Shown here: positions 3,001-25,827 of the stretch, one piece after another
Position numbering within the stretch: the first letter of the stretch is position 1
How the letters are laid out: each line of letters opens with the position of its first letter
The notes under the pieces: generated by a model
Seen by the model: the letters and a program-made list of their open reading frames with translations, nothing else
What the model was told of the DNA's origin: nothing
Databases searched by the model: none
Virus record (IMG/VR): IMGVR_UViG_3300045988_153208
Length of the DNA: 25,827 bases
Source: a virus
Direction: 5' to 3' (one strand)
Made by a program: the position numbers and the translations under genes

Positions 3001-3032
3001 AAATCTAATGCAACATTTAATTGTTTTGCCAT
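1..3032 (-). CDS. Tail tape measure protein, 5' end at 3032 and 3' end beyond the left edge of the window. Single reading frame with many in-frame TAG codons.
   Basis: ORF-track fragments 222..518, 1719..2306 and 2310..2495 are all in the same frame (codon starts = 0 mod 3). Fragments 1719..2306 and 2310..2495 are separated only by TAG at 2310-2312 (..SADKIS-TAG-Q-L-TAVWNN..). TAGs at 531-533, 222-224 and 210-212 are also in frame with sense codons continuing. ATG at 3030-3032 is preceded by GGAG (rc of 3041-3044). The fragment text (AGLEKFAAVS..VGTAFKTLFARIQDLELG) matches the TP901-type tape-measure motif. Confidence 0.75.
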
Positions 3033-3671: not shown

Positions 3672-3733
3672 TCCAAAATCCTCCTTTTACACTTATTTAT
3701 ATTATACTAAAAATTTAGTTTATTGTCAATTTT

Positions 3734-4813: not shown

Positions 4814-4826
4814 TTATTTTCTCCTA

Positions 4827-4868
4827 AAATAAAAAAATGGGGAAGAGGAATAAATCCTCTCCCCATAA
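4827..4868 (-). terminator. Hairpin GGGGAAGAGGA-ATAAA-TCCTCTCCCC plus U-run on the minus strand, between the major tail gene and the next gene. Possibly a partial terminator that sets stoichiometry.
   Basis: Inverted repeat 4838-4866 with A-run 4827-4837 on plus. Similar element at 10002-10040. Confidence 0.5.
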
Positions 4869-4883
4869 AAAATTTTGATTAAA

Positions 4884-5960: not shown

Positions 5961-5984
5961 AGTGTTATTTCCTCCTTGTATTTT

Positions 5985-6716
5985 TAATTAATGAATGTTT
6001 TTCATCCAATTATCCGGGGTCCCTTCAGGTTTACCACCAGCTAAACGCTAGCGCACATCCAGGTCCCAAGCAGTATATAGCGTATATCTCTCCATTAAAT
6101 CATATAATTGGAACATTGTCAGATTTGTCAAATCCTATAATGACATTGAACCTAATCCAATAGTCAAGATTGACATATACTAACTAAAAACACTTACATT
6201 CGAATTACCGTTTTGCGCGGCAACTCGCTGTCTCCCTCGCATTAGCTTTTGAGCAATCTCACGAGCCTTATCGTTGGCAGGATTGAAAGCCTACTAATCC
6301 ATCGGGCCATTGTGCATACAAAAGATTAAACGTAACACTTCTTGTAATGCTTCAAAATTATTTCCATCTATAGTAATAGGAGGAACACCTTCCTTTATAA
6401 ATAATAATGAGTTTGGTGTCACATTTATTTTATATGATGGGAATAATAAATTTAAAACATTTAAAATGTTAGCTTTTTTATCCTTTGTTTCATCCTATAA
6501 CATTATCGTCATAAATATCTAAAAATTATTGATACTGTCTAGAATAGTTTTGTCCTCTATAAACATAGTTTTATGTAAACAGAGGGTCTATGCTCCAATA
6601 AAAAAATCAGATTCCCCAATAAATGAAATTTCTTTTATCCTTGGTTGATGAGCGACTAAATTACATTCAGGAATCAACATATCAGTTCCGCAAATTAAAC
6701 TTAAGCGGTAATCCAT
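5985..6716 (-). CDS. Hypothetical virion protein, about 243 aa, with at least 7 in-frame TAGs including a TAG-TAG doublet at 6291-6296. Start is uncertain (ATG 6714-6716 or 6678-6680).
   Basis: About 230 consecutive codons were hand-translated on the minus strand with no TAA/TGA, in roughly 70% AT DNA. TAA at 5985-5987. The plus-strand ORFs 6310..6522 and 6623..6847 overlap it and look spurious. Confidence 0.45.
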
Positions 6717-7318
6717 TATTTACTAATATAATCCTTGAATTCTTTAATAAATTGTTCCTCTTTAATTTTGCCGCTATTTTTATCAGGATAAGTTGGCATA
6801 TATTTTTCATCTTCACCGCCATGAACAGTGCGATACATCAAACATAACCCAGCAAATTCATCAGTCAAAACAATCTAAGTAGCCCCCACAAATTCTAAAT
6901 AACCAATACCAGTCAATTTTTTCAAATTAAACATTGAATCAATCTCTCCAGCAATTTTATATGGGCGTAATGCATAATCTCTTAAATTCCATTGGTCAAA
7001 ATGACATATAATATCAAATTGAATAGTATTATCTCTAAACTCTGGATTTTCACTGGGAATAAAATTATCAAAATTAATTAATACATAATTTAAAACAGAG
7101 CCATCAACATATAATTTAGGCACTATTTTAATATTAGTTCCTAGTAAACTTAAAGACTAATCTTCAGTAAGATTAGGTTTTTCCATAGCATCACTAGTAG
7201 TATAATATAATAATTTTTTTAAACGATTATTTTTTAATATTTCATTAACAATAATCCCAGTATCTTTTTCCATAGATAGAAAACTTGATTTTGGAATATG
7301 ATATCCGTCTATTCTCAT
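6701..7318 (-). CDS. Hypothetical virion protein, 205 aa. In-frame TAGs at 6875 and at about 7138 and 7157.
   Basis: ATG at 7316-7318 with AAGGAG. Same frame as ORF-track 6875..7123. Hand translation runs to TAA at 6701-6703. Confidence 0.5.
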
Positions 7319-7340
7319 GTTTTCAATCTCCTTTTACTCA

Positions 7341-8495
7341 TTAAAACAATGATTCTACTACTATAGTTTTTCTACTAGTTCCATATACTAAATCAAACTA
7401 ACCACTATAAGTAGAGTCCCACTTAAGTTTAATCGTTGAAAATCCTTTATCATTAGTCCCTTCACTAATAATTCGGACAGGGACATCATTACCTTCAATT
7501 TTCCAAGTCCCTCGAACATTTTTAATATTTAAATTAAAATCATATTCTTTTTTAGGCTTAATAAAGGTTTCACCAACTATATTTAAAATTTTATTATTAT
7601 CTTTGTTATCATCTATAATTTTACGTTTTAATATTGGATCTGGTATTTTAAATACATCAGCCAATCCTGCATCTCGGTCATCTGTAAATTCATTAGCATA
7701 ATATTCAACAGCATTTACTTCAATAACACCAGTCATGCTAATATTATTTACAGCTTCAACTCTCCAACAGGTATCATAAACCGAACCATCTTCCGGCCAA
7801 ATATAAAACTTCTAATACCGTTTAAAAAATTTCAAAGTTTTTTCATTTTTAGGAATTAATAAATTTAAAGAATAATTTGGATTATCTACGCTAGTAGTAT
7901 GTTTTTGAATATAATCAATTTTAGTTTCTACTGGACCTCGATTAGCCACATAAACTACATTTAATTCATCATCCATCATAAATGGAATTTGATAGGTACA
8001 TCTACGAACGTCCCCACGGAAATAAGCTAATTCATCTAAATCCTATAAATAAATTAACCAATAAGTTCCAGTATTACACCATTCAAATACATCTCCACAA
8101 TTAAATTTATGTTCAAATCCAATCGAAATAACTTTATCATCATAATCCTATTTTAATTTATTAGGATTTATTAATGCTCGAACAGGAGGTAAAATATTTT
8201 TTTCTTTTTTAGTTTCTACCTCTGTGGCCGCACATTTACGCACCCAAGCCGCCTAATAAGAATATTTAGTAGCTTGGTCTAACGAATGTCGTTTATCTTT
8301 GATCATTCGCTACTATTGGGCAAAACCACCCGCACTCATTAATCTTTTAGCCATATCTAAACTACCATCAACTGAATCTGGCTAAGGAATTTTTATACTT
8401 GTATCACCTAAACGAGCCCCTACAAGATTTACACTTTTATTAGTATTTAAACCATAAGGTAATAATTTTTCCATCTTTTCTGGACGTTTTGGCAT
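7341..8495 (-). CDS. Hypothetical structural protein, 384 aa. About 12 in-frame TAGs, including a TAG-TAG doublet at 8310-8315.
   Basis: ATG at 8493-8495 with AGGAG (rc of about 8506-8510). All 384 codons hand-translated with no TAA/TGA. Ends at TAA 7341-7343. Includes ORF-track fragment 7398..7736. Confidence 0.5.
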
Positions 8496-8755
8496 TACTT
8501 TTTAATCTCCTATAATAAACTAATACATTCAAATACAGTTTTTCTATAAATTGAGAACTCAATATCATTTAAAACATTTAGCCCTTCTAATTTACTAAGC
8601 AACTATAAAAATCGCGGGTCCTAAATAAAAATTTCATTTAAGCCCGCAATTTCAATAATAACTGTATTTAATTGTTTATCCCAATCTTCTTCATTTTCTC
8701 TCATAGGGATTAATTTCCACAGTTGATTAGTTAATCTTACTATATTTTTCTCCAT
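8495..8755 (-). CDS. Small hypothetical protein, about 86 aa. Its stop overlaps the ATG of the downstream gene (TAATG).
   Basis: ATG at 8753-8755. Minus-strand translation MEKNIVRLTNQLWKL... has 3 in-frame TAGs and ends at TAA 8495-8497. Weak RBS. Confidence 0.3.
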
Positions 8756-8783
8756 GACTTCATTAGAAATATCTGTATGATAT

Positions 8784-9371
8784 TTAGTTATCATAAGGAT
8801 AATTCTTATAATGAAATACGCCCCAATTGGATTCGTATTTCCCTTCTACTAATTTACGACGTTTATATAAACGTTGCATATGGAATGATTGTCTCTAACA
8901 CTCACTTAATAAAGACATCAATTTTTGTAAATGATTAGCCTATGAAGTCATTTTAAAATCTGAACCACTATATTTCATACGAGTGTGTTCAATAGAAGTG
9001 ACTTGGCGTTGTACCCAGTTCACCATCATCAATATAGCTAAAATATTAATTTCCTCCGGTGTTAATTCAACTCCAAAAGATGAATGCTCTACCATTACAC
9101 GAGGAGGGCGGATTTCTGATTCTTCATCTGTTTCATCTTCCCACAAAAGACCAATTACAAAATCATCTTCTAATATTTCATCTTCATATTTAATTTCCTA
9201 ATCAATAGTATAATTATAAATATCAAATCTAGGAAATTCAAATTCAGGTAAAATATTTAAAAGTATCGCACGCAAATCTTTAATTGTGTCTTCTGGAGTT
9301 AATTCAATATAAAGGTCATCAGTAATTTTCCCAAGGAAGCGATTATAAATATCAGTGAATTTAGTTCCCAT
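8784..9371 (-). CDS. Putative head-tail connector/adaptor-type protein, 195 aa, with an acidic central patch. Three in-frame TAGs at 9198, 8940 and 8895.
   Basis: ATG at 9369-9371 with AGGAGG. Hand translation MGTKFTDIYNRFLGKITDDLYIELTPEDTIKDLRAILLNILPEFEFP... runs continuously to TAA 8784-8786. Includes ORF-track 8940..9146. Position downstream of the capsid gene. Confidence 0.4.
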
Positions 9372-9392: not shown

Positions 9393-9980
9393 TTATTCAG
9401 CAGATTTAGTTTCAGTTTGCTTTACTACTTTGTAAGCATTCCCAGATGTACGACGTCCTGCGGGAGCAGATTCTGTAACACGTCTTTCAGCTGGCTTATC
9501 TGCGATAGTTTCCTTTTTATCATCTTCTTTACTAGCGCGGTCATTTTCAATAGCCTTATCTACGTCAAAACCAGTTTTAGCTTTTAGAGCTTCACGCTTA
9601 GCCATATCAGTAATAGGCAATTGAACAGACATAGTTTTAATCAAATCAATAACCCCAATAGGAGCAAAATCAAGAGCATCTAAAAATGCATCAATAGAAC
9701 CACTAAGAATTAAATCACGCACTTGCTCTTCTGACATATTATATTCAGGCTCACGATGGACATTTAAATCATCAGTAACTTCATTTTCCATAATCTGTAA
9801 GAAATTAGCAATTAACTCACGACCGCCGGGTTGATAAGTCAATTTTTCTAATTCACTAAATGGAATACGCTTTACTTCACCGGGTGCCCACTCACGTCTC
9901 AAGTTACTCTCAGGAATTCTATATACAACAACACTAGTACTTCTATTTTTTACATTAAACATATCTTCAGAATGAATCAT
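9393..9980 (-). CDS. Hypothetical virion protein, 195 aa, basic Ala/Arg-rich C-terminus. No in-frame TAG.
   Basis: Complete ORF in the track. ATG at 9978-9980 preceded by AAGGAG. TAA at 9393-9395. Confidence 0.6.
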   Translation of the reverse strand: MIHSEDMFNVKNRSTSVVVYRIPESNLRREWAPGEVKRIPFSELEKLTYQPGGRELIANFLQIMENEVTDDLNVHREPEYNMSEEQVRDLILSGSIDAFLDALDFAPIGVIDLIKTMSVQLPITDMAKREALKAKTGFDVDKAIENDRASKEDDKKETIADKPAERRVTESAPAGRRTSGNAYKVVKQTETKSAE

Positions 9981-10001
9981 TTTATTATCTCCTTTTTCTC
10001 T

Positions 10002-10040
10002 AAAAAAAATAAGGGGAGAGGGAGTAAATCCCTTCTCCCC
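10002..10040 (-). terminator. Hairpin GGGGAGAGGGA-GTAAA-TCCCTTCTCCCC plus U-run on the minus strand, immediately downstream of the putative capsid gene.
   Basis: Inverted repeat 10013-10040 with A-run 10002-10009 on plus. Sequence-similar to the 4838-4866 hairpin. Confidence 0.55.
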
Positions 10041-10065
10041 TTAAACAATAGTTATATTAAGGTTT

Positions 10066-11175
10066 TAATCAAATAGTACCACTCTTACGGCCATCATAGG
10101 TAACAACCTTACCAGTAATGCCATCATAATTCCAAGTATACATTTGACCCATTAAGGAAGTGTCAACATAAGAGCAAATGTTGTTAGCCAACATACAACC
10201 AACGCCGACCTTCTTATAAACCTGAATCTCACGAGAACGATCGTAATTGCTGAATTCATCAACAATAGTTCCACCCTCGAAAGCAATCTTTACAGGCTTG
10301 CCATCAACACCAGTAGGAATAATCCAAGCATAACCAGGATCAATAACCTTACGAGTATTACTTTCATCTTCGAAGCCCTACTCTAAAATAACAACCTTGG
10401 TTCCCTTATAGGTAGCCAAACGGCCAGTATTCCACAGCTCAGTCTTCATAGCTTCAGTATAACGCCAAGCTTCATTAGGAATCATACGAACAGCAAATTC
10501 ATAAGTACAATAAATAGTAGGAGTACCATAAGCAGAAGCAATGGTAATCAAACGATCCATAGCACCCTCATCAAAACCTGCTGCAGCAACGCGGTTAGCA
10601 GGAGGTAGCTGATTGATAGAAGACTTCAAAGCCAAAGCAACTTCCTTATAAATCAGTTCATCCATACCATCCATAATAATCTTGGTAACTTCAGCAAAAT
10701 CAACACGACCATCTAAGAACTCTTCGAAGCCGATTTGAGCAGCTCCGCCGATAGCAGAGGTACGGACCTCAAAGCTCTCGCTCTCAGCAGGTCCCAGCTT
10801 GAAGACTTCATAGATACCAGCCAGTCCAACACGAGTCACAAACTGCTTAGCACGTGCGCGTGTATTTAGAGGACGACGGAAAATGGGCTTATCACCCTGA
10901 GCAAACTGCTTAACTTCAGCAAACTGCTCATAAGACTGAGAAACCTTCTTAGGAAGAACTTCATCCAAAGTCTCCTCAATCATTGAGAAAATTAGATTTT
11001 TATTTTCACGATATAGAGCATTGGTACCAGCCAGCTCGTTCATCTCATTACGTAAAGTATCGTTCAGAGCCTCATAAGAAAGGTTCTGACCATTATAACT
11101 GTAAGCCACAGGAGAAGAAGGATCAGCCTTAGCAACAGTCTTCATTAAAGCAACTAAATTGTTTCTATCTAACAT
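10066..11175 (-). CDS. Putative major capsid protein, 370 aa. One in-frame TAG at 10378-10380.
   Basis: ORF-track 10378..11175 continues in frame through TAG to TAA at 10066-10068 (315 nt in frame). ATG at 11173-11175 with AAAGGAGAG. Position scaffold-decoration-capsid as in lambda/SPP1. Followed by a strong hairpin. Confidence 0.5.
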
Positions 11176-11192
11176 TATTCTTCTCTCCTTTC

Positions 11193-12128
11193 TTACGCAA
11201 TACGTAGAATCTTAGCGCCACGTTGTCCATCAGGCATAGTATATACCTTAACAACCTGCCACTTCATATCCTGACTCTCATCTTTTACAAGAATTCCGTC
11301 AGCAGCTGCTGGAGCTAAAATATCACCAACAGAAACACTATCTTCATTAATCATATTAGTAGTATAATGATCACCAACATTAGTCTTGAAGACACGAGGA
11401 ACCATTGCAGTGCCTGGAGTCATACGCTTCTCATGATAAACACCAAGCTTCTTATATGGATCATTAGTCCAAGTCAGCTCTTCGTAAATGTCAGCAACAT
11501 CAGTTAGAACCTTATCATAAGCATACTTTACAGGCACAGGAGTCTTAGTCTGATTGGTCTTAGGATCAATCTCATACTCTACACCATTATAAGTAAACTT
11601 ATTGTCCTTAACATCATAAACTTCGCCAGCGATGGTAACAGTCTTTAGACCCTGATCTAAAGCAACAGTGTGCTCAAGCACCTTGTGATCAGCACCAGTT
11701 TCATCAACACCATTCCAGAAACGTCCACCATATTCAACCTCGGTATGCTCCCAATCGTATGGAGAATAAATACGAGCCTGATAGTCGTCCTTTAGCATAG
11801 CAAATTCGCAATCCCACTGCTTAGTTCCATCAGGATGATCGCGATATAACTTAATCTCATTATAAACTAGCATCCACTCGCCCTTGCCAGTAAAATTCAC
11901 TTCACCAATACCATTGGCATTAGCAGCGTAATCATACTTGACAAACTGACCGTTTTCAAGAATATTAATACCCTTGTTAGCAGGCAACTGAGCATAAATT
12001 TGAGCGGTTCTTTGTGCAGACAGGTGATTTGGCTCAACCTGACCATAACCAAACTCAACATACTTAGCCTGTGACTTAGGTGGATTTTTACCAACGCCTA
12101 AACGAGAATTTAAAAAATCCTTAAACAT
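11193..12128 (-). CDS. Capsid-associated protein, 311 aa. Decoration-like by position between scaffold and capsid; could alternatively be the major capsid protein.
   Basis: Complete uninterrupted ORF. ATG at 12126-12128 with AAGGAGG. TAA at 11193-11195. Confidence 0.55.
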   Translation of the reverse strand: MFKDFLNSRLGVGKNPPKSQAKYVEFGYGQVEPNHLSAQRTAQIYAQLPANKGINILENGQFVKYDYAANANGIGEVNFTGKGEWMLVYNEIKLYRDHPDGTKQWDCEFAMLKDDYQARIYSPYDWEHTEVEYGGRFWNGVDETGADHKVLEHTVALDQGLKTVTIAGEVYDVKDNKFTYNGVEYEIDPKTNQTKTPVPVKYAYDKVLTDVADIYEELTWTNDPYKKLGVYHEKRMTPGTAMVPRVFKTNVGDHYTTNMINEDSVSVGDILAPAAADGILVKDESQDMKWQVVKVYTMPDGQRGAKILRIA

Positions 12129-18756: not shown

Positions 18757-19827
18757 TCAAAATTATAACTGTTTGCCCTTGTTTTTAGCATTACGGCATT
18801 TTTTACAAATACTATAATAACCATCTTTACTAGTTTTATTTTTGCTAAAATATTTATTATGTGCTAATTTAATTTGCCCACAGCGACTACATTTTTTATA
18901 TTTACCTTTTGCTTTATGTAAATAATAATCATATAGGTATTGGTCTTCAGCCGCAGAGGCGATTAATTTTGGAATTTTATTGCGCCATAAACTAGAAATA
19001 TATTCTAAACTATGAGTAATATTAAATTCCTCTTGAATTTTCTTTTGAATGTCTATATTCTATAATCCATCAATTTTATATTCAACTATTCTATCATATA
19101 AGGGATAATCTTTAAGAGCAATGGTACATAAATTATCGAAATCTTCCATAATATACCATAAATCTCTTTCAAAATCTCCCCAACTATCTTGCTTTAAACG
19201 AGAATAATTACATAAAATTGCAGAACATACTCTAGGGTCTAAGAGTGAAACGCCATCCGGAATTGGATAACCATCATCATCAAAAATGCAAGTCGTGTCC
19301 TCTAATGGAATAAAATTTCTTGAACGAGTAATTTTAGTCATAACAATTGGACGACGAACTGCATTTTTAATAACATACTAATCTTTACGCATTTCAATAA
19401 TAGCACGTTTAATTATAAATGCTTCGCGTCCTTCACTAACTCGTAATTTGGCTTCCCAAGTAGTAATGGCGTCTCTTAACTATTTTAAATGAGGTATTTC
19501 TTCTATATCTTTTTTAGTAATTGTAATCTTAGGCTAAAATATTGTATTTTTATTTTCAGTAATTAAATTATAAATTCCATCTTCGCCATTCTCAAATTGG
19601 GAAACAAGACCTTCAAAAGATGTTTCACGCTTATTAACTGTTGCCATACGATTATCAGTTAATAATTTACGCTCCTTTTTCTCTTGTTTCTCCATACAAA
19701 GAATGATATAGTCCCCTAATATTTCTAAATATCGAGGAGAGGGGTCTGGGGTTTCCTCTAATATTTTCTTGACTAATTCATTTCTTTCTTCTGGAGTTTG
19801 TAAGGAATAATCTAATTTTATCATCAT
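18757..19827 (-). CDS. 356-aa hypothetical protein with a C-terminal Cys4 zinc ribbon (CSRCGQ..x17..CKKC). First gene of the leftward operon. Four in-frame TAGs.
   Basis: ORF-track 19534..19827 and 19060..19341 are in the same frame, joined through TAGs at 19534, 19480 and 19378. TGA at 18757-18759. ATG at 19825-19827 with GGAGG. Confidence 0.45.
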
Positions 19828-19936: not shown

Positions 19937-19965
19937 TTGACAATAAAAAAAATTTTTTGTATTAT
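19937..19965 (+). promoter_or_regulatory. Rightward sigma70-type promoter (TTGACA-N17-TATTAT) for the early operon, in the divergent intergenic region.
   Basis: TTGACA at 19937-19942 and TATTAT at 19960-19965. AAAGGAG RBS, then ATG at 19996. Confidence 0.4.
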
Positions 19966-19995: not shown

Positions 19996-20394
19996 ATGGT
20001 AATTGCTATTATTATATTAAGTATATTATTAATATTATCTATTATATATAATATATTGTTTACAAAAGGAGTCGCTAAACTTCTTGACCCTGAAAACATT
20101 GAACAAAAATATAATTTAATAGCAGATTATTATGGAGATGCAAATAACATTGAAGAAAGTTTCCCTTGTTGTTTGCTATTACATCTCCAATTTAATGCGA
20201 AGGAATCCGCAAAAATCACAGACTTCTCTAATTATGAAAATTCTAATATAATCGCTTATTCAGTTTTGTCCAAGGGCCCGCCACCGCCTGGATACGCCAA
20301 TCAACTGGAAGAAGACGGCTCTATAAGAATATTAGTCCACAATGTTCGAGTAAATAAATATAAGGATGGTGAATATTTTTGGGAGCCTATGTAA
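19996..20394 (+). CDS. Membrane protein, 132 aa (N-terminal transmembrane helix, PPPPG motif).
   Basis: Complete ORF with good RBS. Hydrophobic N-terminus VIAIIILSILLILSIIYNILF. Confidence 0.6.
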   Translation: MVIAIIILSILLILSIIYNILFTKGVAKLLDPENIEQKYNLIADYYGDANNIEESFPCCLLLHLQFNAKESAKITDFSNYENSNIIAYSVLSKGPPPPGYANQLEEDGSIRILVHNVRVNKYKDGEYFWEPM

Positions 20395-20585
20395 TTGTTA
20401 TCTTTTGGATAATCATTTCAGCATTAGTAATGTTTGAATATATTGATGCAATTCAAAGCGCCGGTGAAAATAAATTAATTGTTTGTCTAATATTTTTTAT
20501 TGGTGGCCCAATATTTGCTGCGAGTGATTTATTACAAAGAATTTTAGATATATTTTTACCGGAAGGGTGGAATGGTGATGACTGA
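20379..20585 (+). CDS. Small two-TM membrane protein, 68 aa (TTG start).
   Basis: ORF track; AAGGATGGTGA upstream. Overlaps the preceding gene by 16 nt. Confidence 0.4.
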   Translation: MGAYVIVIFWIIISALVMFEYIDAIQSAGENKLIVCLIFFIGGPIFAASDLLQRILDIFLPEGWNGDD

Positions 20586-20604
20586 AAAATAGATTAAATA
20601 TATT

Positions 20605-20904
20605 TTGAAAAATTTTAAACGAGGCACTACTATTCTATTTATGGGTGTATCATTTAATCAATATATTAATCTTGAACAATTAACTGAAGCAGGATATACT
20701 TGTATTTTATTGGGTGAAGGTCAAGATTATTGGCCATATATTCAAGATAATATGATTATTTATGTGGATAATATTGATATTAAAATTATGCGATTAAATT
20801 GTTATCCATTACATTGCCCTATTTTTGTATCTGATAGAAATCGAGTAATAAATGCAGAAGATAGAGATGTGCGCGTTTGGGCAGAAGTGTTAAAAGAGGA
20901 GTAA
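20605..20904 (+). CDS. Hypothetical protein, about 99 aa (start uncertain: TTG 20605 or ATG 20641).
   Basis: ORF track; tightly packed operon. Confidence 0.45.
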   Translation: MKNFKRGTTILFMGVSFNQYINLEQLTEAGYTCILLGEGQDYWPYIQDNMIIYVDNIDIKIMRLNCYPLHCPIFVSDRNRVINAEDRDVRVWAEVLKEE

Positions 20905-20905
20905 T

Positions 20906-21199
20906 ATGAAAATTTATAAATATTTAATTGAAACTCCAGGGTCAACTCATATTATGGACCATCTGACTGATATTGTATCTACTGGATTAGATGTAAATAA
21001 TAATCCATGCGTATGGGCAGTTTATGATGAAAAAGTACCCAAAAAATATTTTCAAATTAATGCTGTTGGCACAGGTTGGGAATTGGATAAATATGTAAAT
21101 AATAATGACAAGTATTTAGGAGTTATTAATGATGGTGAGTATATTTGGCATATCATTAAGTCTTCTGGAGAAAAATGTCATATAATGGAGGAGAAGTGA
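20906..21199 (+). CDS. Hypothetical protein, 97 aa.
   Basis: ORF track; RBS AAAGAGGAG immediately upstream. Confidence 0.55.
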   Translation: MKIYKYLIETPGSTHIMDHLTDIVSTGLDVNNNPCVWAVYDEKVPKKYFQINAVGTGWELDKYVNNNDKYLGVINDGEYIWHIIKSSGEKCHIMEEK

Positions 21200-21203
21200 T
21201 TTT

Positions 21204-21521
21204 ATGGAAGATGGAAAAAATTATTTTGATATTGTAATGCGAGAAGGCCAAGCAATAGTTCATAATGAAGGTTCTATTCATTAGGTTGATAGTTTAGGCC
21301 GTCTTGTTTTTCCTAAAAATTTAAGACAAAAATATGGTATTACTCCTGGTGACCGCATGGAATTTTATACTATTGAATATAATGGTGAAGTTTATGTTGG
21401 AGTGCGAGTGAGTAAACGATATGGTAGTAGAATAGAGTATTTACGCGCTAAAGAAGTATTAGATGATTTGGGAATTGAGATTCCTCAAAAACTAACTGAT
21501 GCTATTAATGGAGTAATGTAA
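21204..21521 (+). CDS. AbrB/MazE/SpoVT-family (swapped-hairpin) DNA-binding protein, 105 aa, with an in-frame TAG at codon 27 (21282-21284).
   Basis: GGAGGAG RBS. Hand translation MEDGKNYFDIVMREGQAIVHNEGSIH[TAG]VDSLGRLVFPKNLRQKYGITPGDRMEFY... carries the classic VDxLGRxVIPKexR..GI..GD motif. TAA at 21519-21521. Absent from the ORF track because of the TAG. Confidence 0.55.
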
Positions 21522-21522
21522 T

Positions 21523-21666
21523 ATGCCTAAGTATAAAAGTTTTGGAAATGCCCTCGCTGCTAAAATGCAGAAAAAGGCTAATTATTATGCTACTAAAGCA
21601 GTTCATCAAATTGTATGGGGTGAAAACCCTAAACGTGGTCGTCCTAAGAAGGAGAATAAGAAATGA
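21523..21666 (+). CDS. Small basic protein, 47 aa (..GRPKKENKK).
   Basis: ATG at 21523 with GGAG 9 nt upstream. Stop TGA overlaps the next ATG. Confidence 0.35.
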   Translation: MPKYKSFGNALAAKMQKKANYYATKAVHQIVWGENPKRGRPKKENKK

Positions 21667-21746
21667 TTCTTGAAGCATTGGCATTAATAGGATTAATTCT
21701 ATTTTTTCCTATCTGGTTTTTTGGTAGAAATAAAATTAAAAAGTAA
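21663..21746 (+). CDS. 27-aa hydrophobic peptide (MILEALALIGLILFFPIWFFGRNKIKK).
   Basis: ATG at 21663 with AAGAAGGAG RBS. Single predicted TM segment with a basic C-terminus. Confidence 0.35.
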   Translation: MILEALALIGLILFFPIWFFGRNKIKK

Positions 21747-21956
21747 TTCTTTTTACCGTTATCTGAATTGAAAAAAGTTTTGGTGAGAGTTTGTACCAGC
21801 CAAACAAAAAAATAAAAATCAAAAAAAATTTTTTCCCGAAACCCACCCCCCCGGTCGGTTTTTATCTGAGAAAAAATCTGAACACTATCGAGACCTTCTT
21901 GGGCTTGGCGCACGCGGAAAGGCTAGACCATCCCCAATACAGCCCCTCAACTCGCA

Positions 21957-21981
21957 GGACCGCGAATGGCTGTCGCGGTCC
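21957..21981. other. Perfect 9-bp stem-loop (GGACCGCGA-atggctg-TCGCGGTCC) with no U-tract, about 60 nt upstream of the tiny-peptide promoter.
   Basis: Inverted repeat read directly from the sequence. Confidence 0.5.
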
Positions 21982-22041
21982 TCATTCACAATAAATACAA
22001 ACTCCACAAAAAATCTCTCGCAAATTTGTGTATTCTGCCAA

Positions 22042-22070
22042 TAGACACGCATCCTGAAATCTGGTATAAT
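22042..22070 (+). promoter_or_regulatory. Promoter TAGACA-N17-TGgTATAAT driving the 31-aa peptide gene.
   Basis: TAGACA at 22042-22047, TATAAT at 22065-22070, with an extended -10 TG. Confidence 0.5.
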
Positions 22071-22095
22071 AGTATTATCAAAGGAGGAATGGTCT

Positions 22096-22191
22096 ATGTC
22101 TATCATCTACAAAGTCGTGCGCTTCATCACCGCGGTCGCTGTTGTCGCGGGCACTGGCATCCTGATGTGCCTCATCTGCCTCCCTCATTGA
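22096..22191 (+). CDS. 31-aa hydrophobic peptide (MSIIYKVVRFITAVAVVAGTGILMCLICLPH), its own transcription unit. Small membrane peptide, possibly type-I-toxin-like.
   Basis: AAAGGAGGAA RBS 8 nt before ATG 22096. TGA at 22189-22191 lies inside the terminator stem. Confidence 0.5.
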   Translation: MSIIYKVVRFITAVAVVAGTGILMCLICLPH

Positions 22192-22204
22192 GGGAGGTTT
22201 TTTG
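22179..22204 (+). terminator. Intrinsic terminator CCTCCCT-cattg-AGGGAGG plus T6.
   Basis: Perfect 7-bp GC-rich stem followed by TTTTTT. Confidence 0.7.
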
Positions 22205-22210
22205 TTGCCC

Positions 22211-22291
22211 TAAGATTGTTAAAAATTTAACGATGTAGCAAGATTGTTAAAAGATTAACAATGTAGCAAGATTGTGAAAGATTTAACAATC
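22211..22291. repeat. Three tandem about 28-bp repeats (tAGCAAGATTGTTAAAArtTTAACaATG), each containing the palindrome TTGTTAA-N4-TTAACAA.
   Basis: Copies at 22211-22235, 22236-22263 and 22264-22291, read directly. Confidence 0.8.
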
Positions 22292-22295
22292 ACTC

Positions 22296-22400
22296 AACCA
22301 AGAGAGGACAAGGACACGCACGGCACAGTGGACAAGGCAAAGCGAGCCAACGAGCGAGCGACCAACAGACAAAGAGAACAACAACACAACACAACACAAT
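22296..22400. other. About 100-nt tract almost devoid of T on the plus strand (A/C/G only; CA and CAA repeats, ACAACAACACAACACAACACAA).
   Basis: Direct reading; extreme strand composition skew. Confidence 0.8.
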
Positions 22401-22408
22401 GATAGATA

Positions 22409-22430
22409 CATTGTTAATGTATTAACAATG
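22409..22430. promoter_or_regulatory. Operator-like palindrome CATTGTTAAT-gt-ATTAACAATG (10-bp perfect arms) between the two skewed tracts.
   Basis: Direct reading. Confidence 0.6.
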
Positions 22431-22432
22431 TA

Positions 22433-22505
22433 GTATAGTAGTATGGTATGGTATGGTAGGGTATGGGGTGGGGTGGGCTATGGGTAGTGGGTAGGGAGAG
22501 AGAGT
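22433..22505. other. About 73-nt C-free G/T/A tract with TATGG/TAGGG repeats and a G-quadruplex-type motif (GGGGTGGGGTGGGCTATGGGTAGTGGGTAGGG).
   Basis: Direct reading; four or more GGG runs separated by 1-5 nt. Confidence 0.75.
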
Positions 22506-22726
22506 AGACCAACAATAAGAGATGCGGACGCGCTTCCCACCGGTCGGCTCACCGGGAACCGCGCACAACAAATCTAATGTAAGTATTCTATTTCTCTTTT
22601 GGGTTCATCATCGTTAACGGCCCTAATCGCCCAAGAATAAGCCCTCGCACAATTGCCAAACAACACAGCAGGGCAGGCGCTGAACCGCGCGTATCCCGCA
22701 ACACACAGCTCTCACAGAGGAGCGAG

Positions 22727-22753
22727 CAAGATTGTTAAAAGTTTAACAATGTG
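22727..22753. promoter_or_regulatory. Operator-like palindrome copy (CAAGATTGTTAAAAGTTTAACAATGTG).
   Basis: Matches the repeat consensus. Confidence 0.55.
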
Positions 22754-22840
22754 AGAGCCAAGAGCAAGAGAGTAAAGAGTGCGCTTGCACAGGTAGCAAG
22801 GAGGATACACACGGCACAGTTGATACATTCGCTGACCGAG

Positions 22841-22866
22841 CAAGATTGTTAAAAAATTCACAATGT
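22841..22866. promoter_or_regulatory. Operator-like palindrome copy (CAAGATTGTTAAAAAATTCACAATGT).
   Basis: Matches the repeat consensus. Confidence 0.5.
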
Positions 22867-22890
22867 GTGGATGTGGTGAAGTCGCTGTTT

Positions 22891-22911
22891 AATTGTTAAA
22901 AATTTCACATT
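22891..22911. promoter_or_regulatory. Degenerate operator-like copy (AATTGTTAAAAATTTCACATT).
   Basis: Partial match to the consensus. Confidence 0.4.
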
Positions 22912-22990
22912 CGCTGTTGGATGCCGAACACGGTCGCAACGCCCCAGACTTCACCACATTAAAGTGTTAAAGAAAAAAAATTGCAAATGC

Positions 22991-23012
22991 GATTGTTAAA
23001 ATAATCACAATC
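22991..23012. promoter_or_regulatory. Operator-like copy (GATTGTTAAAATAATCACAATC) about 40 nt upstream of the promoter at 23054.
   Basis: Matches the consensus. Confidence 0.5.
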
Positions 23013-23053
23013 TTCATCCCGAAAATAAATAGGTTATTTTTGAAAAAACCTCT

Positions 23054-23081
23054 TGACAAATTGCCCTATGTGTGCTACAAT
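23054..23081 (+). promoter_or_regulatory. Promoter TTGACA-N16-TGcTACAAT for the two-gene operon 23112-23550.
   Basis: TTGACA at 23054-23059 and TACAAT at 23076-23081. Confidence 0.55.
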
Positions 23082-23111
23082 GATTACAGTAAAACAAAGG
23101 AGGACGATACA

Positions 23112-23348
23112 ATGTCTAACATCTATGGAGTCTGCTACACCACGAAAGAGCCTGTTGTCTACAACAGAGGGACACAGTGGGAGAAAACCTGTTCCGATTT
23201 CCTGTTCGTTCAGGCAAACAAGGACAATGGCACAAAGCTGGTGGACAAGCTGAACGCTATGCTTGCCGCAGGTGTGGAAAAGTACGAACTGCTGGACATG
23301 ACCAAGATTGACCATTTCTATCTTGACAAGTCCGAGGAAATGTATTAA
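23112..23348 (+). CDS. Hypothetical small protein, 78 aa.
   Basis: AAAGGAGGAC RBS and ATG at 23112. No in-frame TAG. TAA stop. Confidence 0.6.
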   Translation: MSNIYGVCYTTKEPVVYNRGTQWEKTCSDFLFVQANKDNGTKLVDKLNAMLAAGVEKYELLDMTKIDHFYLDKSEEMY

Positions 23349-23361
23349 GGAGGAACTGACA

Positions 23362-23550
23362 ATGACACGCACTATCGCTAATACCTACATCTGTATCAAC
23401 AACGAGGGACAGATGCTCTCCATCATTGCCCGCACGGGCAACGAAGCCCATAACATCGCAATAGGGTTTTTGCGGAAAGCAAACATCGTGAGCGTTCGCC
23501 GTGTATTCAAGTCTGGCAAGCTGGGCAAGGAAATTCTGAAAATTAAATAA
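23362..23550 (+). CDS. Hypothetical small basic protein, 62 aa.
   Basis: TAAGGAGGAA RBS and ATG at 23362. TAA stop followed by the terminator. Confidence 0.6.
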   Translation: MTRTIANTYICINNEGQMLSIIARTGNEAHNIAIGFLRKANIVSVRRVFKSGKLGKEILKIK

Positions 23551-23554
23551 AATA

Positions 23555-23584
23555 AACAGGGCGCAAGCCCTGTTATTTTTTTTA
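23555..23584 (+). terminator. Intrinsic terminator AACAGGGC-GCAA-GCCCTGTT plus T9 (GNRA tetraloop).
   Basis: Direct reading. Confidence 0.75.
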
Positions 23585-23603
23585 TAAAATGCGAAAAAAA
23601 CTA

Positions 23604-23632
23604 TTGACAAATATAAATAAGCGTGTTATAAT
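23604..23632 (+). promoter_or_regulatory. Promoter repeat copy P1: cTATTGACAAATATAAATAAGCGTGTTATAAT (TTGACA-N17-TGtTATAAT).
   Basis: TTGACA at 23604-23609 and TATAAT at 23627-23632. About 90% identical to the copies at 24022 and 25281. Confidence 0.6.
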
Positions 23633-23664
23633 GAATACAGAAATTAAGAAATGAGGTACACAAA

Positions 23665-23853
23665 ATGAAGAACATCTATGAAATCGAGAACATCATCGAC
23701 GAAATCCCCGCTGATGATTGGGCTGGCATTTGTAATCTGATGGACTACTACTATCAGTCGAATTTCTCCGCTGACGCTGAACAGAGACTGGCAAGGGCAA
23801 TCGCTCCTTACGGCTTGACCGCAGAGGAAATCCTGACCTGGGACGCTGAATAA
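23665..23853 (+). CDS. Small acidic protein, 62 aa.
   Basis: RBS AAATGAGGTACACAAA and ATG at 23665. TAA at 23851-23853 lies in the terminator loop. Confidence 0.55.
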   Translation: MKNIYEIENIIDEIPADDWAGICNLMDYYYQSNFSADAEQRLARAIAPYGLTAEEILTWDAE

Positions 23854-23868
23854 GCGTCCTATTTTTTT
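23841..23868 (+). terminator. Terminator GGACGC-tgaataa-GCGTCC plus T7.
   Basis: Direct reading. Confidence 0.6.
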
Positions 23869-23876
23869 GCTGTTGG

Positions 23877-23896
23877 ATTGTTAAAATTTTAACGAG
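23877..23896. promoter_or_regulatory. Operator-like palindrome copy (ATTGTTAAAATTTTAACGAG) between the terminator and the antisense promoter.
   Basis: Matches the TTGTTAA-N4-TTAAC consensus. Confidence 0.5.
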
Positions 23897-23933
23897 CATC
23901 GTCGCGCTCATCAGGCACGTGGCGCCCCGAAAT

Positions 23934-23963
23934 ATTATACCACAACAGTCCACCAGTTGTCAA
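23934..23963 (-). promoter_or_regulatory. Minus-strand promoter (TTGACA-N18-TGgTATAAT) firing antisense toward the 3' end of gene 23665..23853.
   Basis: The rc of 23958-23963 is TTGACA. The rc of 23934-23942 is TGGTATAAT. Confidence 0.4.
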
Positions 23964-24021
23964 GAGAAAAATACGAAAATTTCGCACAAAATTTGCTATC
24001 CCGATTTGTATAGTTTGCCAA

Positions 24022-24050
24022 TAGACAAAATGAAATAAGCGTGTTATAAT
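24022..24050 (+). promoter_or_regulatory. Promoter repeat copy P2: TAGACAAAATGAAATAAGCGTGTTATAAT.
   Basis: TAGACA at 24022-24027, TATAAT at 24045-24050, with extended TG. Confidence 0.55.
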
Positions 24051-24083
24051 GAGTACAACAAAACAACAAAGGAGATACACACA

Positions 24084-24392
24084 ATGATTAACATTCGTTC
24101 TATCCGCAAGCTGGGCAACAATGACGGGCTGACCCTCAAAATGGGCAAAAAGGTAAACTATAAATCCGGCTGGCAAGTTGCCACAGAGGGCATCGAGTGC
24201 AAGACCGCACAGGAAGCCATTGACGCGGTGAGAGACTACGGCGGCAATTGTGGCGTGTGGTTCAGTGAGGGCGTGTATTACATCGACAAAAGCAAGCGCG
24301 TGGCGACAAAGCGTGAAGCTATGGAAATCGGCAAAGCGTGTAATCAAATTTCCGTGTTGAAATGGGCAACTATGACGCTTGCCTACTGCTAA
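24084..24392 (+). CDS. Hypothetical protein, 102 aa.
   Basis: AAAGGAGATACACACA ATG. TAA stop followed by the terminator. Confidence 0.6.
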   Translation: MINIRSIRKLGNNDGLTLKMGKKVNYKSGWQVATEGIECKTAQEAIDAVRDYGGNCGVWFSEGVYYIDKSKRVATKREAMEIGKACNQISVLKWATMTLAYC

Positions 24393-24396
24393 AATA

Positions 24397-24423
24397 ATAG
24401 GGCGAAAGCCCTATTTTTTTTTG
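24397..24423 (+). terminator. Terminator ATAGGGC-GAAA-GCCCTAT plus T9.
   Basis: Direct reading; GNRA loop. Confidence 0.75.
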
Positions 24424-24443
24424 AAAAAATTTCAAAAAAGGTA

Positions 24444-24472
24444 TTGACAAATCCCGAAATAGGTGCTATAAT
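24444..24472 (+). promoter_or_regulatory. Promoter TTGACA-N17-TGcTATAAT.
   Basis: TTGACA at 24444-24449 and TATAAT at 24467-24472. Confidence 0.55.
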
Positions 24473-24502
24473 TAAACCATCAAAAGAGAGGAGCTAAACG
24501 CT

Positions 24503-24694
24503 ATGACAAACTTTGAACAGTATCTCGAAAACCTGATGGGTATGAAGAAAGCGGAAATCATCAATGAGGGCATCACCTGGGGCATCTGGGCGAACACCGA
24601 GGGCAACAAAGCCGAGTTGATGAAATGGAAAAAAGTTCTGCTGGCGCGTTCCCTCGCCGATAGGCTGGAAAGACTGGAAAGGCGGGGCTACTAA
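24503..24694 (+). CDS. Hypothetical protein, 63 aa.
   Basis: AGAGAGGAG RBS and ATG at 24503. TAA stop. Confidence 0.6.
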   Translation: MTNFEQYLENLMGMKKAEIINEGITWGIWANTEGNKAELMKWKKVLLARSLADRLERLERRGY

Positions 24695-24695
24695 G

Positions 24696-24722
24696 ACAAG
24701 GGCGAAAGCCCTTGTTTTTTTT
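24696..24722 (+). terminator. Terminator ACAAGGGC-GAAA-GCCCTTGT plus T8.
   Basis: Direct reading. Confidence 0.75.
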
Positions 24723-24773
24723 ATATGGCATTATGCCCATAATTCGGTTGAAAATTTTGGTGATTTTGCCTAT

Positions 24774-24801
24774 TGACATTCTGCCCCATTTGTGTTATAC
24801 T
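24774..24801 (+). promoter_or_regulatory. Promoter TTGACA-N16-TGtTATACT with no ORF immediately downstream. It transcribes into the GC palindrome and toward the next cassette.
   Basis: TTGACA at 24774-24779 and TATACT at 24796-24801. Confidence 0.45.
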
Positions 24802-24804
24802 CGG

Positions 24805-24831
24805 TCGCGCGCCCACGGTCCTGGCGCGCGA
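24805..24831. promoter_or_regulatory. GC-rich palindrome TCGCGCGCC-cacggtcct-GGCGCGCGA lying between face-to-face promoters.
   Basis: Perfect 9-bp inverted repeat. Confidence 0.6.
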
Positions 24832-24839
24832 AATTTACC

Positions 24840-24868
24840 ATTATACCATGTCCCAGCAATTTTGTCAA
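24840..24868 (-). promoter_or_regulatory. Minus-strand promoter (TTGACA-N17-TGgTATAAT) facing the 24774 promoter and firing antisense toward gene 24503..24694.
   Basis: The rc of 24863-24868 is TTGACA. The rc of 24840-24848 is TGGTATAAT. Confidence 0.45.
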
Positions 24869-24926
24869 TAGGCAAATCAAACAAAAATCATACATTCCAA
24901 ATCCCGAAATTTGTGCATTTTAACTA

Positions 24927-24955
24927 TTGACATTCATACGCCCCTGTGCTATACT
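24927..24955 (+). promoter_or_regulatory. Promoter TTGACA-N17-TGcTATACT.
   Basis: TTGACA at 24927-24932 and TATACT at 24950-24955. Confidence 0.55.
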
Positions 24956-24984
24956 GTATACATAAAACAGAGGAGGTCATGAGT

Positions 24985-25257
24985 ATGACGCGTGAGTACA
25001 AGATTAGGTTCATCGACAGCGAGGCGCAGTATAGCGAGACTGCTACTGCTCAGTGGGACACCGACACCAGTATATGCGATTTCCTTGAAGAACAGCTGTA
25101 TATTCAGTGGGAACTGCGCCCTCTGGAAAGATACTGGCAGAGAGAGTTCTGCACCAAAGGCTGGACGCGGTTTATATATGGTCTATATGAGCAGTTCTCC
25201 GTGTCTTATGACTGGGACAACTCCAATATCATTACCGTTGAAAAAATCCGAAGCTAA
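24985..25257 (+). CDS. Hypothetical protein, about 90 aa (alternative start ATG 24979).
   Basis: AGAGGAGG at 24971-24976. The ORF track's longer N-terminus (from 24946) lacks an RBS. Confidence 0.55.
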   Translation: MTREYKIRFIDSEAQYSETATAQWDTDTSICDFLEEQLYIQWELRPLERYWQREFCTKGWTRFIYGLYEQFSVSYDWDNSNIITVEKIRS

Positions 25258-25270
25258 TTCGGATTTTTTC
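25245..25270 (+). terminator. Terminator TCCGAA-gctaa-TTCGGA plus T6, overlapping the stop codon.
   Basis: Direct reading. Confidence 0.6.
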
Positions 25271-25280
25271 ATTTTTTCTA

Positions 25281-25309
25281 TTGACAAATACAAATAAGCG
25301 TGTTATAAT
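25281..25309 (+). promoter_or_regulatory. Promoter repeat copy P3: TTGACAAATACAAATAAGCGTGTTATAAT.
   Basis: TTGACA at 25281-25286 and TATAAT at 25304-25309. Confidence 0.6.
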
Positions 25310-25338
25310 TGTATTATCAAATGAGGGAGGTATTCAAG

Positions 25339-25560
25339 ATGGAATACTCAGTAGTAGTCAATAATGTTGAGGTCGTGCGCGTGAGCGGTGATGAAGCCGC
25401 GTGGAACAAATTTGAAACGGCGTGTGAGCTGGTGCGGCTGATGCTGGCTGATGGCGGTTTTGGTGAAGCGTGGGCAGAACTCCGCGAGATGAACGGCGAG
25501 CCTATCGCCCGCTTTGATGAAAACGGTATGAGCGAGTGCGGCGCAGTCCGCGGAATGTGA
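25339..25560 (+). CDS. Small acidic protein, 73 aa.
   Basis: GAGGGAGG RBS and ATG at 25339. TGA stop overlaps the next RBS. Confidence 0.55.
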   Translation: MEYSVVVNNVEVVRVSGDEAAWNKFETACELVRLMLADGGFGEAWAELREMNGEPIARFDENGMSECGAVRGM

Positions 25561-25570
25561 GGTGCGACAA

Positions 25571-25768
25571 ATGGACGCTAAGGGATTTACATTTTGCGGC
25601 GGGGCTGATGAACGGGATGTTCTCCGCTACGGCGAGTATCTGACCGATGAACAGTATACCACGTGGGATAGCCACTATTACCGCCTGCGCGCTATCCGCT
25701 ACAATGGCAAGCTGTACTGGCACAAGATGGTGGACGGCGAACTGGTTGAATTTAAGGTTTTGAAATGA
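25571..25768 (+). CDS. Hypothetical protein, about 65 aa, translationally coupled to the upstream gene.
   Basis: GAGGTG 6 nt before ATG 25571. TGA at 25766-25768 lies inside the terminator. Confidence 0.5.
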   Translation: MDAKGFTFCGGADERDVLRYGEYLTDEQYTTWDSHYYRLRAIRYNGKLYWHKMVDGELVEFKVLK

Positions 25769-25793
25769 GCCAAATTTTGGCTCATTTTTTTTG
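25766..25793 (+). terminator. Terminator TGAGCCAAAA / TTTTGGCTCA plus T8.
   Basis: Direct reading. Confidence 0.7.
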
Positions 25794-25805
25794 TGCATTT
25801 TGACT

Positions 25806-25827
25806 ATTGACAAAATAAGCATTTTTA
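25806..25827 (+). promoter_or_regulatory. Start of another promoter-repeat copy (cTATTGACAAAATAAGC...), truncated by the window end.
   Basis: TTGACA at 25807-25812. Shares the ATTGACAAA..ATAAGC motif of P1-P3. Confidence 0.4.

Follow-up and report, generated by a model that had tools for sequence, protein, structure and literature searches.

The 25,827-nt stretch recorded in IMG/VR as IMGVR_UViG_3300045988_153208 was analysed at its full length (hereafter the window) for the distribution of in-frame TAG codons over its genes. Its sequence points to a portion of a large siphovirus using genetic code 15, which reads TAG as sense, from a group that would infect Firmicutes. The window holds a leftward virion and packaging module, an AT-rich rightward operon and a block of small GC-rich rightward cassettes, which differ in their numbers of TAG, CAA and CAG codons and in the GC content of third codon positions (GC3):

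Leftward module, minus strand: 6,424 codons with 90 TAG, 155 CAA and 32 CAG; GC3 0.12-0.33
19996-21746, plus strand, AT-rich operon of seven open reading frames (ORFs): 584 codons with 2 TAG, 14 CAA and 1 CAG; GC3 0.14-0.28
22096-25768, plus strand, nine cassettes: 626 codons with 0 TAG, 2 CAA and 14 CAG; GC3 0.60-0.77

Distribution of in-frame TAG codons

An initial annotation of this DNA had described TAG as partitioned by module, with one TAG per 30-60 codons in the leftward module, a lone TAG in the operon and none in a cassette block of about 700 codons. The gradient is real and all nine cassette ORFs are free of TAG, but the cassettes amount to 626 codons and the operon contains two TAGs. 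The leftward density had been overstated: at least one TAG is found in 16 of the 18 genes, and the mean is one per 71 codons, with single genes ranging from one per 30 to none. Tested per codon against the leftward (late) module, the operon is depleted of TAG with p = 0.034 and the cassettes with p = 5e-4; by TAG share of glutamine codons, the cassettes are depleted as well (0/16, p = 0.004). The late genes are heterogeneous in TAG among themselves (p ~ 0.001), and their single shares span 0 to 0.67, which includes that of the operon. Taken alone, the window makes the partition visible but does not separate it from composition, and by glutamine share the operon is not significantly different.

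The family was sampled at 78 IMG/VR loci around the terminase gene, and TAG-share figures were calculated for 11 recoded clade representatives. In these, TAG makes up 23.9% of the glutamine codons in the late module (466/1,946), 11.1% in AT-type rightward ORFs (15/135; p = 3e-4 versus late, and lower than late in 9/9 clades) and 2.6% in GC-type rightward ORFs (7/274), the latter with 7 in-frame versus 199 off-frame TAGs. The GC-rich block of a near-identical relative (L080) comprises 28 genes with 2,473 codons and lacks TAG both in frame and as a stop; scaling by CAA:CAG predicts ~11 TAGs (P ~ 1e-5). The three-tier TAG gradient is clearly non-random and conserved at the family level.

Mutation alone, i.e., C-to-T drift from CAG to TAG in AT-rich DNA while GC-rich genes keep CAG, is an improbable source of the gradient. 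Such drift fits the ratio of TAG to CAG in the window, which is 2:22 in three GC-richer late genes (those for the major capsid protein, a 311-aa protein and the 358-aa protein at 4884-5960) versus 88:10 in the remaining, AT-rich ones, and the zero of the nine cassettes is unremarkable after CAA:CAG scaling. It does not fit the zero in the extended block of L080 or the ratio of in-frame to off-frame TAGs in GC-type ORFs, and TAG is absent as a stop, too. Furthermore, AT-type rightward genes share the codon usage of late genes but have half their TAG share in the clades examined. Since the absence of TAG is frame-specific, a purely mutational origin is contradicted.

TAG as glutamine codon, suppressor tRNA and the leftward module

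The standard code fragments the leftward 19.8 kb, whereas code 15 yields 18 genes packed tightly into one operon and preceded by AGGAGG-type ribosome binding sites. The total span of ORFs of ≥ 100 aa is 15.5 kb under code 11 and becomes 31.7 kb once TAG counts as sense; readthrough of TGA adds no length to the longest ORFs. At the TAG columns of the window, CAA or CAG is found in 60-68% of the codons of relatives with 70-95% protein identity. The remainder is mostly glutamate or lysine, and the substitution spectrum is the same as that of CAA columns. On these grounds, TAG is read as glutamine. All 33 genes whose stop codon lies in the window end with TAA or TGA and none with TAG, which terminates 10-14% of the genes of standard-code relatives. 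Separately, a small gene beyond the right edge in a 98% relative (L059; window-equivalent position ~27,300) ends with TAG followed by TAA, a tandem that would terminate translation under either code.

TAG sites turn over rapidly. They are retained to 98% at ≥ 95% identity, to 19% at 80-95% and to 5% at 70-80%, and interchange freely with CAA and CAG between relatives. Along the late genes, TAG positions are uniform (Kolmogorov-Smirnov p = 0.73) and no different from those of CAA and CAG; a 5' bias of TAG inside late genes was looked for and none was found.

A tRNA with anticodon CUA was found by a pattern scan on IMGVR_UViG_3300045988_141926, whose large terminase (TerL) is 98% identical to that of the window, ~72 kb from the TerL gene (site: L095 1666-1853; IMGVR_UViG_3300045988_141926, ~103.2 kb). 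The same tRNA sequence is present on a second contig with a 98% identical TerL (L208). Its own promoter is a perfect TTGACA-17-TATAAT (12/12 positions), separated from the tRNA by an 86-nt leader, and is of the same class as the cassette promoters. No ribozyme family was detected above threshold at the tRNA-CUA locus of the near-identical relatives. Other tRNAs lie nearby, including a 194-nt tRNA-like match which probably carries an insertion.

The late proteins were compared with phAss-1, a 136-kb phage using code 15 with three tRNA-Sup-CTA genes and TAG reported in virion genes (Babkin et al. 2023, PMC10607447). Three neighbouring genes of the leftward module, all on the minus strand, are poor in TAG:

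9393-9980, minus strand, gene for a 195-aa protein; 0 TAG
10069-11175, minus strand, gene for the major capsid protein, 368 aa, 50% identical to ORF25 of phAss-1; 1 TAG
11193-12128, minus strand, gene for a 311-aa protein; 0 TAG

The absence of TAG from the 195-aa and 311-aa genes, counted under code 15, is as the initial annotation had it. The identity of the major capsid protein is taken from the annotation of ORF25 in the phAss-1 supplement; Pfam gave nothing useful for the capsid and tail proteins, and their homologs in annotated phage records are hypothetical proteins. The cluster (9393..12128) is GC-richer (GC3 0.20-0.33) and encodes glutamine by CAG. Across the 11 recoded clades, TAG accounts for 0/138 glutamine codons of the major capsid gene, 1/139 of the 311-aa gene and 2/75 of the 195-aa gene, and for 18-46% in the other late genes. 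In the phAss-1 table, the major capsid gene and its neighbours are likewise without TAG, a gap left uncommented there (Babkin et al. 2023, PMC10607447). The family-wide avoidance of TAG by the capsid cluster is one modest addition to prior knowledge.

The remaining genes of the module, again all on the minus strand, are:

1..3032, minus strand, tape measure protein gene, N-terminal 1,010 codons, running off the left edge; function from size and position, as in phAss-1; 31 TAG
3147-3671, minus strand, tail/head-completion gene; 1 TAG
3734-4813, minus strand, tail/head-completion gene; 3 TAG
4884-5960, minus strand, tail/head-completion gene, 358 aa; 1 TAG
5988-6716, minus strand, tail/head-completion gene, 242 aa; 8 TAG
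6716-7318, minus strand, tail/head-completion gene; 2 TAG
7341-8495, minus strand, tail/head-completion gene, 384 aa; 8 TAG
8495-8794, minus strand, tail/head-completion gene; 3 TAG
8784-9371, minus strand, tail/head-completion gene; 3 TAG
12147-13736, minus strand, gene matching phrog_3313 (PHROG); 2 TAG
13748-15409, minus strand, portal gene (PHROG); 9 TAG
15422-15778, minus strand, HNH homing endonuclease gene (PHROG), between portal and terminase; 2 TAG
15789-17522, minus strand, TerL gene (PHROG, and tblastn to phage terminases); 9 TAG
17524-18720, minus strand, gene with a YonG_N domain (Pfam note on assemblies); 3 TAG
18763..19827, minus strand, first leftward gene, PHROG label "sigma factor" (phrog_5767, E = 1.6e-53); 4 TAG

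The eight tail/head-completion genes (3147..9371) are ORFs under code 15 with AGGAGG-type ribosome binding sites and PHROG matches including "virion structural protein". More than 15 TAGs had been announced for the tape measure protein gene and at least 6 for the portal gene, which agrees with the 31 and 9 counted; for the 384-aa gene, the expected number of about 12 was too high, as there are 8.

It had also been suggested that recoding acts as a timing device. For other recoded phages this is a published hypothesis: TAG would have been selected into late genes, delaying assembly and lysis until suppressor tRNA accumulates. In its general form, the suggestion fits the published model of alternatively coded phages, in which genes that have to be read ahead of suppression lack TAG and most virion genes depend on suppression; the early-type block without TAG as sense codon or stop and the tRNA-CUA of the two relatives with 98% identity support this much. 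The 16 TAG-bearing leftward genes, the TAG-free early-type block and the recurrence of the gradient across clades agree with a purpose-built timer. We nevertheless consider such a timer rather unlikely for this family. The most abundant late proteins avoid TAG in the recoded clades, TAG sites are neither conserved between relatives nor biased in position, the AT-rich rightward operon carries TAG too, and the promoter of the suppressor tRNA gene has the early-type consensus; simple avoidance of a costly codon predicts all the same features. Timing alone is insufficient to explain the pattern, because three late genes, those for the major capsid protein and its two neighbours, are almost free of TAG in the recoded clades. 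With a TAG-poor late capsid cluster and uniform TAG positions, the pattern resembles the avoidance of a costly codon and not a purpose-built timer.

The sigma label of the first leftward gene has no sequence support from Pfam, NCBIfam or PDB. Its product carries a C-terminal CxxC...CxxC zinc ribbon, and its own promoter at 19881-19853 (minus strand) is perfect at 12/12 consensus positions. In the HNH gene, TAG makes up 31% of the glutamine codons across the recoded clades; given this share and the TAGs of the copy in the window, the mobile gene appears adapted to the code of the phage.

Rightward operon and GC-rich cassettes

The AT-rich operon begins behind the strand switch at ~19,900:

19937..19965, plus strand, sigma-70-type promoter of the operon, 11/12 consensus positions, back to back with the leftward promoter
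19996..21746, plus strand, AT-rich operon of seven ORFs, with ribosome binding sites and gene calls in assemblies
19996-20394, 20379-20585, 20578-20904, 20906-21199, 21204-21521, 21523-21666 and 21663-21746, plus strand, the seven ORFs
20590..20592, plus strand, in-frame TAG, codon 5 of gene 20578-20904
21204..21521, plus strand, gene for a protein of 105 aa with a SpoVT/AbrB domain (PF04014); in-frame TAG at 21282-21284 (codon 27), directly before the conserved VDxLGR motif

In the initial annotation, the TAG at 21282-21284 was the only one of the operon. Its position, frame and codon number are correct, but the TAG at 20590-20592 had been missed. The gene containing the latter starts with an ATG at 20578 which overlaps the upstream stop, and its product is called at 105-108 aa in 6 assemblies (108 in five). 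In a relative (L003), proline is found in this TAG column, the MTEK upstream is kept and a downstream methionine, the alternative start, is lost. The codon usage of the operon is close to that of the late genes (relative synonymous codon usage, RSCU; r = 0.91). Since in-frame TAGs occur at 20590 and 21282, past the strand switch, the TAG boundary is not at this switch; it is at the jump in composition near 21750.

The AbrB-like gene is, judged by its domain match and alignments, genuine and its TAG in frame. PF04014 matches residues 26-63 with 27.7 bits (cut-off 24.7), AbrB and SpoVT chains of PDB align over residues 20-64, and syntenic homologs align from residue 13-22 on, across the TAG; the match to TIGR01439 is slightly below the cut-off. 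The suspicion that the frame might be spurious is thereby removed. As the TAG precedes the entire SpoVT/AbrB domain, the full protein would need readthrough, and only a peptide of 26 aa would be made otherwise; so far, the initial annotation is followed. Its further proposal, a built-in sensor of suppression giving the 26-aa peptide before and the complete DNA-binding protein after suppression, is very improbable. The location just before the whole domain and the presence of the TAG in 13 close relatives would suit a sensor, but these relatives are 90-99% identical, a distance at which nearly all TAGs are kept (98% of all TAGs persist). The column of codon 27 contains lysine or arginine in AbrB, SpoVT and all diverged syntenic homologs (32-40% identity), one distant homolog has a TAG at another position, and in other recoded clades the TAGs of AT-type rightward ORFs are in unrelated genes and positions. 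With lysine or arginine in the homologs and a second TAG in the operon, the sensor idea is unsupported.

To the right of the jump in composition are found:

21750..23040, GC-rich, ORF-poor stretch at the start of the jump (GC profile), with 8/10 palindromes and the 31-aa cassette 22096-22191
22096..25768, plus strand, nine small cassettes with no TAG as sense codon or stop
22096-22191, 23112-23348, 23362-23550, 23665-23853, 24084-24392, 24503-24694, 24985-25257, 25339-25560 and 25571-25768, plus strand, the nine cassette ORFs

Most cassettes come with a TTGACA/TATAAT promoter of their own, an AGGAGG ribosome binding site and, as terminator, a GC hairpin with a run of T behind it; the promoter and terminator sequences recur throughout the cassettes. 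This layout suggests early expression. Synonymous changes exceed nonsynonymous ones in 8/9 plus-strand ORFs (e.g., 31:6, 58:23 and 30:16) and GC3 is far higher than the GC content of second positions, by which the plus-strand frames are judged real. Long antisense ORFs with TAG have synonymous to nonsynonymous ratios of ~1:2 to 1:7, as is the case for non-coding frames. One of them (23034-23729, minus strand, 3 TAG) was rejected as a shadow ORF with 49 synonymous versus 100 nonsynonymous changes. In two relatives, antisense genes of 237-240 aa are called on the minus strand (L082 8931-9644 and L084 8923-9645) where other relatives have the cassettes c2-c4; these calls, the counterpart of 23034-23729 in the window, are probably the same artefact of calling with code 15.

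Codon usage is split as well: the cassettes have a GC3 of 0.60-0.77 and the other genes one of 0.12-0.33, and the RSCU of the cassettes correlates with r = -0.24 both with the late genes and with the AT-rich operon. Such a jump, from a GC3 of ~0.18 to ~0.65 near 21750 with anticorrelated RSCU, together with a cassette content that differs between strains, might indicate a foreign block, either joined on as a chimera during assembly or acquired recently from a donor with the standard code. This origin is extremely improbable. The same junction is found on many assemblies and IMG/VR contigs that are independent of each other; in all lineages of the family, with and without recoding, small rightward genes form a block at this place; TAG stops are missing (versus 10-14% in standard-code relatives), and promoters and terminators are repeated within the block. 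An assembly chimera was rejected owing to the same layout on independent contigs of 50-165 kb; synteny and the absence of TAG stops contradict a foreign origin.

A 19-bp palindrome of the TTGTTAAAANTTTAACAAT type occurs at 10 sites (20 matches counting both strands, versus 0.25 matches expected): 19926, 22216, 22244, 22272, 22411, 22732, 22846, 22893, 22993 and 23878. Three of the sites follow each other in tandem with a spacing of 28 bp, and another extends into the -35 box of the rightward promoter; 13 close relatives have the same number of palindromes in the same order. The AbrB-like protein was considered as a binder of the palindrome and found unsupported, as two relatives (L070, L071) have palindromes and no detectable AbrB homolog. 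Among the palindromes in the ORF-poor stretch, the low-complexity runs acaacacaacacaacacaa and ggtatggtatggtagggtatggggtggggtggg are found within 22380-22500. Within the plus-strand cassette block, the minus strand also has perfect sigma-70-type promoters, at 24773-24868 and 23934-23963, and one of them faces a plus-strand promoter across the GC-rich hairpin 24805-24832; they may drive small or antisense RNAs.

Explanation of the partition and comparison with known phages

Probably, the genome is divided into two translational compartments, and the TAG partition is a footprint of the code switch and not a designed timer. The first compartment would consist of the tiny GC3-rich genes with their own promoter, ribosome binding site and terminator, which give the same protein under either code; the cassettes would be immediate-early genes readable by a naive host cell. 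The virion and packaging genes and the sigma-like gene would form the second, AT3-rich compartment, together with the proximal rightward operon, to which the AbrB-like gene belongs. Here, TAG would serve as about one third of the glutamine codons, decoded by a phage tRNA-CUA encoded elsewhere in the genome, which would have to accumulate and compete with release factor 1. TAG would then be an ordinary yet costly synonymous codon, drifting in and out of CAA/CAG sites. Selection would act against it where premature termination costs most, depending on expression level and on how early a protein is needed. This would affect genes whose products are required while the suppressor is still scarce, and also the late proteins produced in the largest amounts, i.e., the major capsid protein and its two neighbours. 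The TAG of the AbrB-like gene would be one ordinary recoded glutamine codon, although completion of the protein requires suppression.

Several points weigh against this explanation. "Early" and "late" were assigned from gene function, orientation and architecture only, and the cassette proteins have no homolog of known function in Pfam or PHROG. Perfect sigma-70-type promoters are found outside the cassettes, too: ahead of the sigma-like gene, at 3729-3701 ahead of a tail gene, and ahead of the suppressor tRNA. Being common to these and the cassettes, the promoter class indicates neither the compartment nor the timing, nor a delayed supply of the tRNA. The window has no tRNA gene and, therefore, no tRNA-CUA of its own. 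Within the window, the TAG share of glutamine codons in the Gln-poor operon does not differ significantly from that of the late genes (2/17 versus 90/277, p = 0.10), and for the cassettes, scaling by their own CAA:CAG usage gives only 1.2 expected TAGs (P(0) = 0.31). Finally, a timer is still conceivable for particular genes, e.g., lysis genes beyond the window.

A broader form of the two-compartment explanation concerns the origin of recoding. The GC gap, taken as the small-gene block minus the virion module, has a median of +7.2 points in recoded clades (n = 12) and of +1.2 in interleaved standard-code sisters (n = 8; Mann-Whitney p = 4e-4, not phylogenetically corrected; ~5 kb per genome, loci L002-L079). 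This larger gap in recoded clades is a second modest addition. It suggests that recoding evolves together with an escape from host codon usage, e.g., after a move to GC-richer hosts. Tentatively, the change of code may belong to a strategy of translation in two compartments, with host-like, GC3-rich and code-neutral early cassettes and a remainder which has drifted to AT3 and relies on a phage tRNA set including tRNA-CUA; we regard this as possible without favouring it. The link between recoding and GC gap offers a cheap, testable lead on how code changes begin.

The layout of TAG has already been described for such phages and is no new kind of switch. Structural and lysis genes were found to be enriched in recoded stops, and early genes to be readable under the standard code (Borges et al. 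2021/2022, bioRxiv 10.1101/2021.08.26.457843). The window shares with these phages the reading of TAG as glutamine, probably by a phage suppressor tRNA, TAG in structural genes, presumed early genes that the standard code can read, standard-code relatives and a low GC content. In contrast, its lineage belongs to a different siphovirus group that would infect Firmicutes, its lysis genes are outside the window, the major capsid cluster of its family is TAG-poor, and the TAG-free zone starts at a jump in composition.

For crAss-like phages of Bacteroidetes, the Mgcod paper (Pfennig, Lomsadze and Borodovsky; bioRxiv 10.1101/2022.06.29.495998) describes a dual-coded early block and a code boundary at the strand switch; the term "GC content" is absent from its text. 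Common to both cases are a block with the same proteins under codes 11 and 15, assigned (in the window putatively) as early, and another block that needs code 15; the nine cassettes of the window and the 28 genes of L080 read the same under both codes. However, in the window a further 1.75 kb past the strand switch still uses TAG, and the dual-coded block consists of tiny ORFan cassettes with a very different GC3.

As in phAss-1, TAG is found in the tape measure, terminase and portal genes and is lacking, or nearly so, from the major capsid gene and its neighbours; the gene order around the terminase differs, and standard-code Enterococcus phages are nearer to the TerL of the window (~52%). 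A switch dependent on suppressor concentration has been proposed in work on theta ribozymes.

Large virulent phages of Firmicutes carry host-takeover or pre-early gene arrays, of which the terminal-redundancy module of SPO1 is an example. In these arrays, too, many tiny genes are situated beside virion genes, each having a terminator, a promoter of the host type and a ribosome binding site, the latter two strong, and their proteins are of no known function. The block of the window differs in that no sequence similarity was found (Pfam, PHROG), that its GC3 shift and TAG avoidance are particular to the recoded lineage, and that we infer its early expression.

The present case adds a widespread lineage of the human gut to the phages whose genome is divided into an early block neutral to the code and a remainder recoded for TAG. 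The timer hypothesis gains a negative control, as TAG is avoided in the genes of abundant late capsid proteins no less strictly than in early genes, which favours codon cost over deliberate delay. For annotation, code 15 applied throughout produces long antisense shadow ORFs in the GC-rich block, whereas code 11 shatters the virion genes.

By tblastn, TerL places the window among large siphoviruses of Firmicutes: its identity is 61% to an unannotated human faecal contig, ~52% to standard-code Enterococcus phages of 134-142 kb and 44% to phAss-1, whose major capsid protein is 50% identical at the amino acid level. On the basis of these values, phAss-1 is a distant relative from the same broad group. 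The proposed genus Phassvirus rests on high nucleotide identity and a gene order shared with phAss-1, which the window does not have, and blastn of its right-hand 6 kb against phAss-1 gave no match. A hint at the host comes from metagenome-assembled genome bins of relatives and is limited to the phylum level: most bins are Bacillota (Clostridia, Erysipelotrichaceae, Bacilli), with one labelled Tenericutes and one Muribaculaceae. The 102-aa protein of cassette 24084-24392 has index entries in 257 blocks of the assembly collection, and 6 independent contigs (50-165 kb) show the shared layout of sigma-like gene, AT-rich operon and cassettes. Among the cassette and early proteins, only DUF7352 and the AbrB domain were matched in Pfam and PHROG, and an Rfam search of the window gave no match.

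In the 78 IMG/VR loci around the terminase, recoded lineages lie interleaved with those of the standard code, at TerL identities of 63-87%. Two lineages, L048 and L032, appear weakly or incipiently recoded, with 8 and 2 in-frame TAGs, respectively, over the 14 late genes examined; these lineages may be intermediate stages in the gain or loss of the code.

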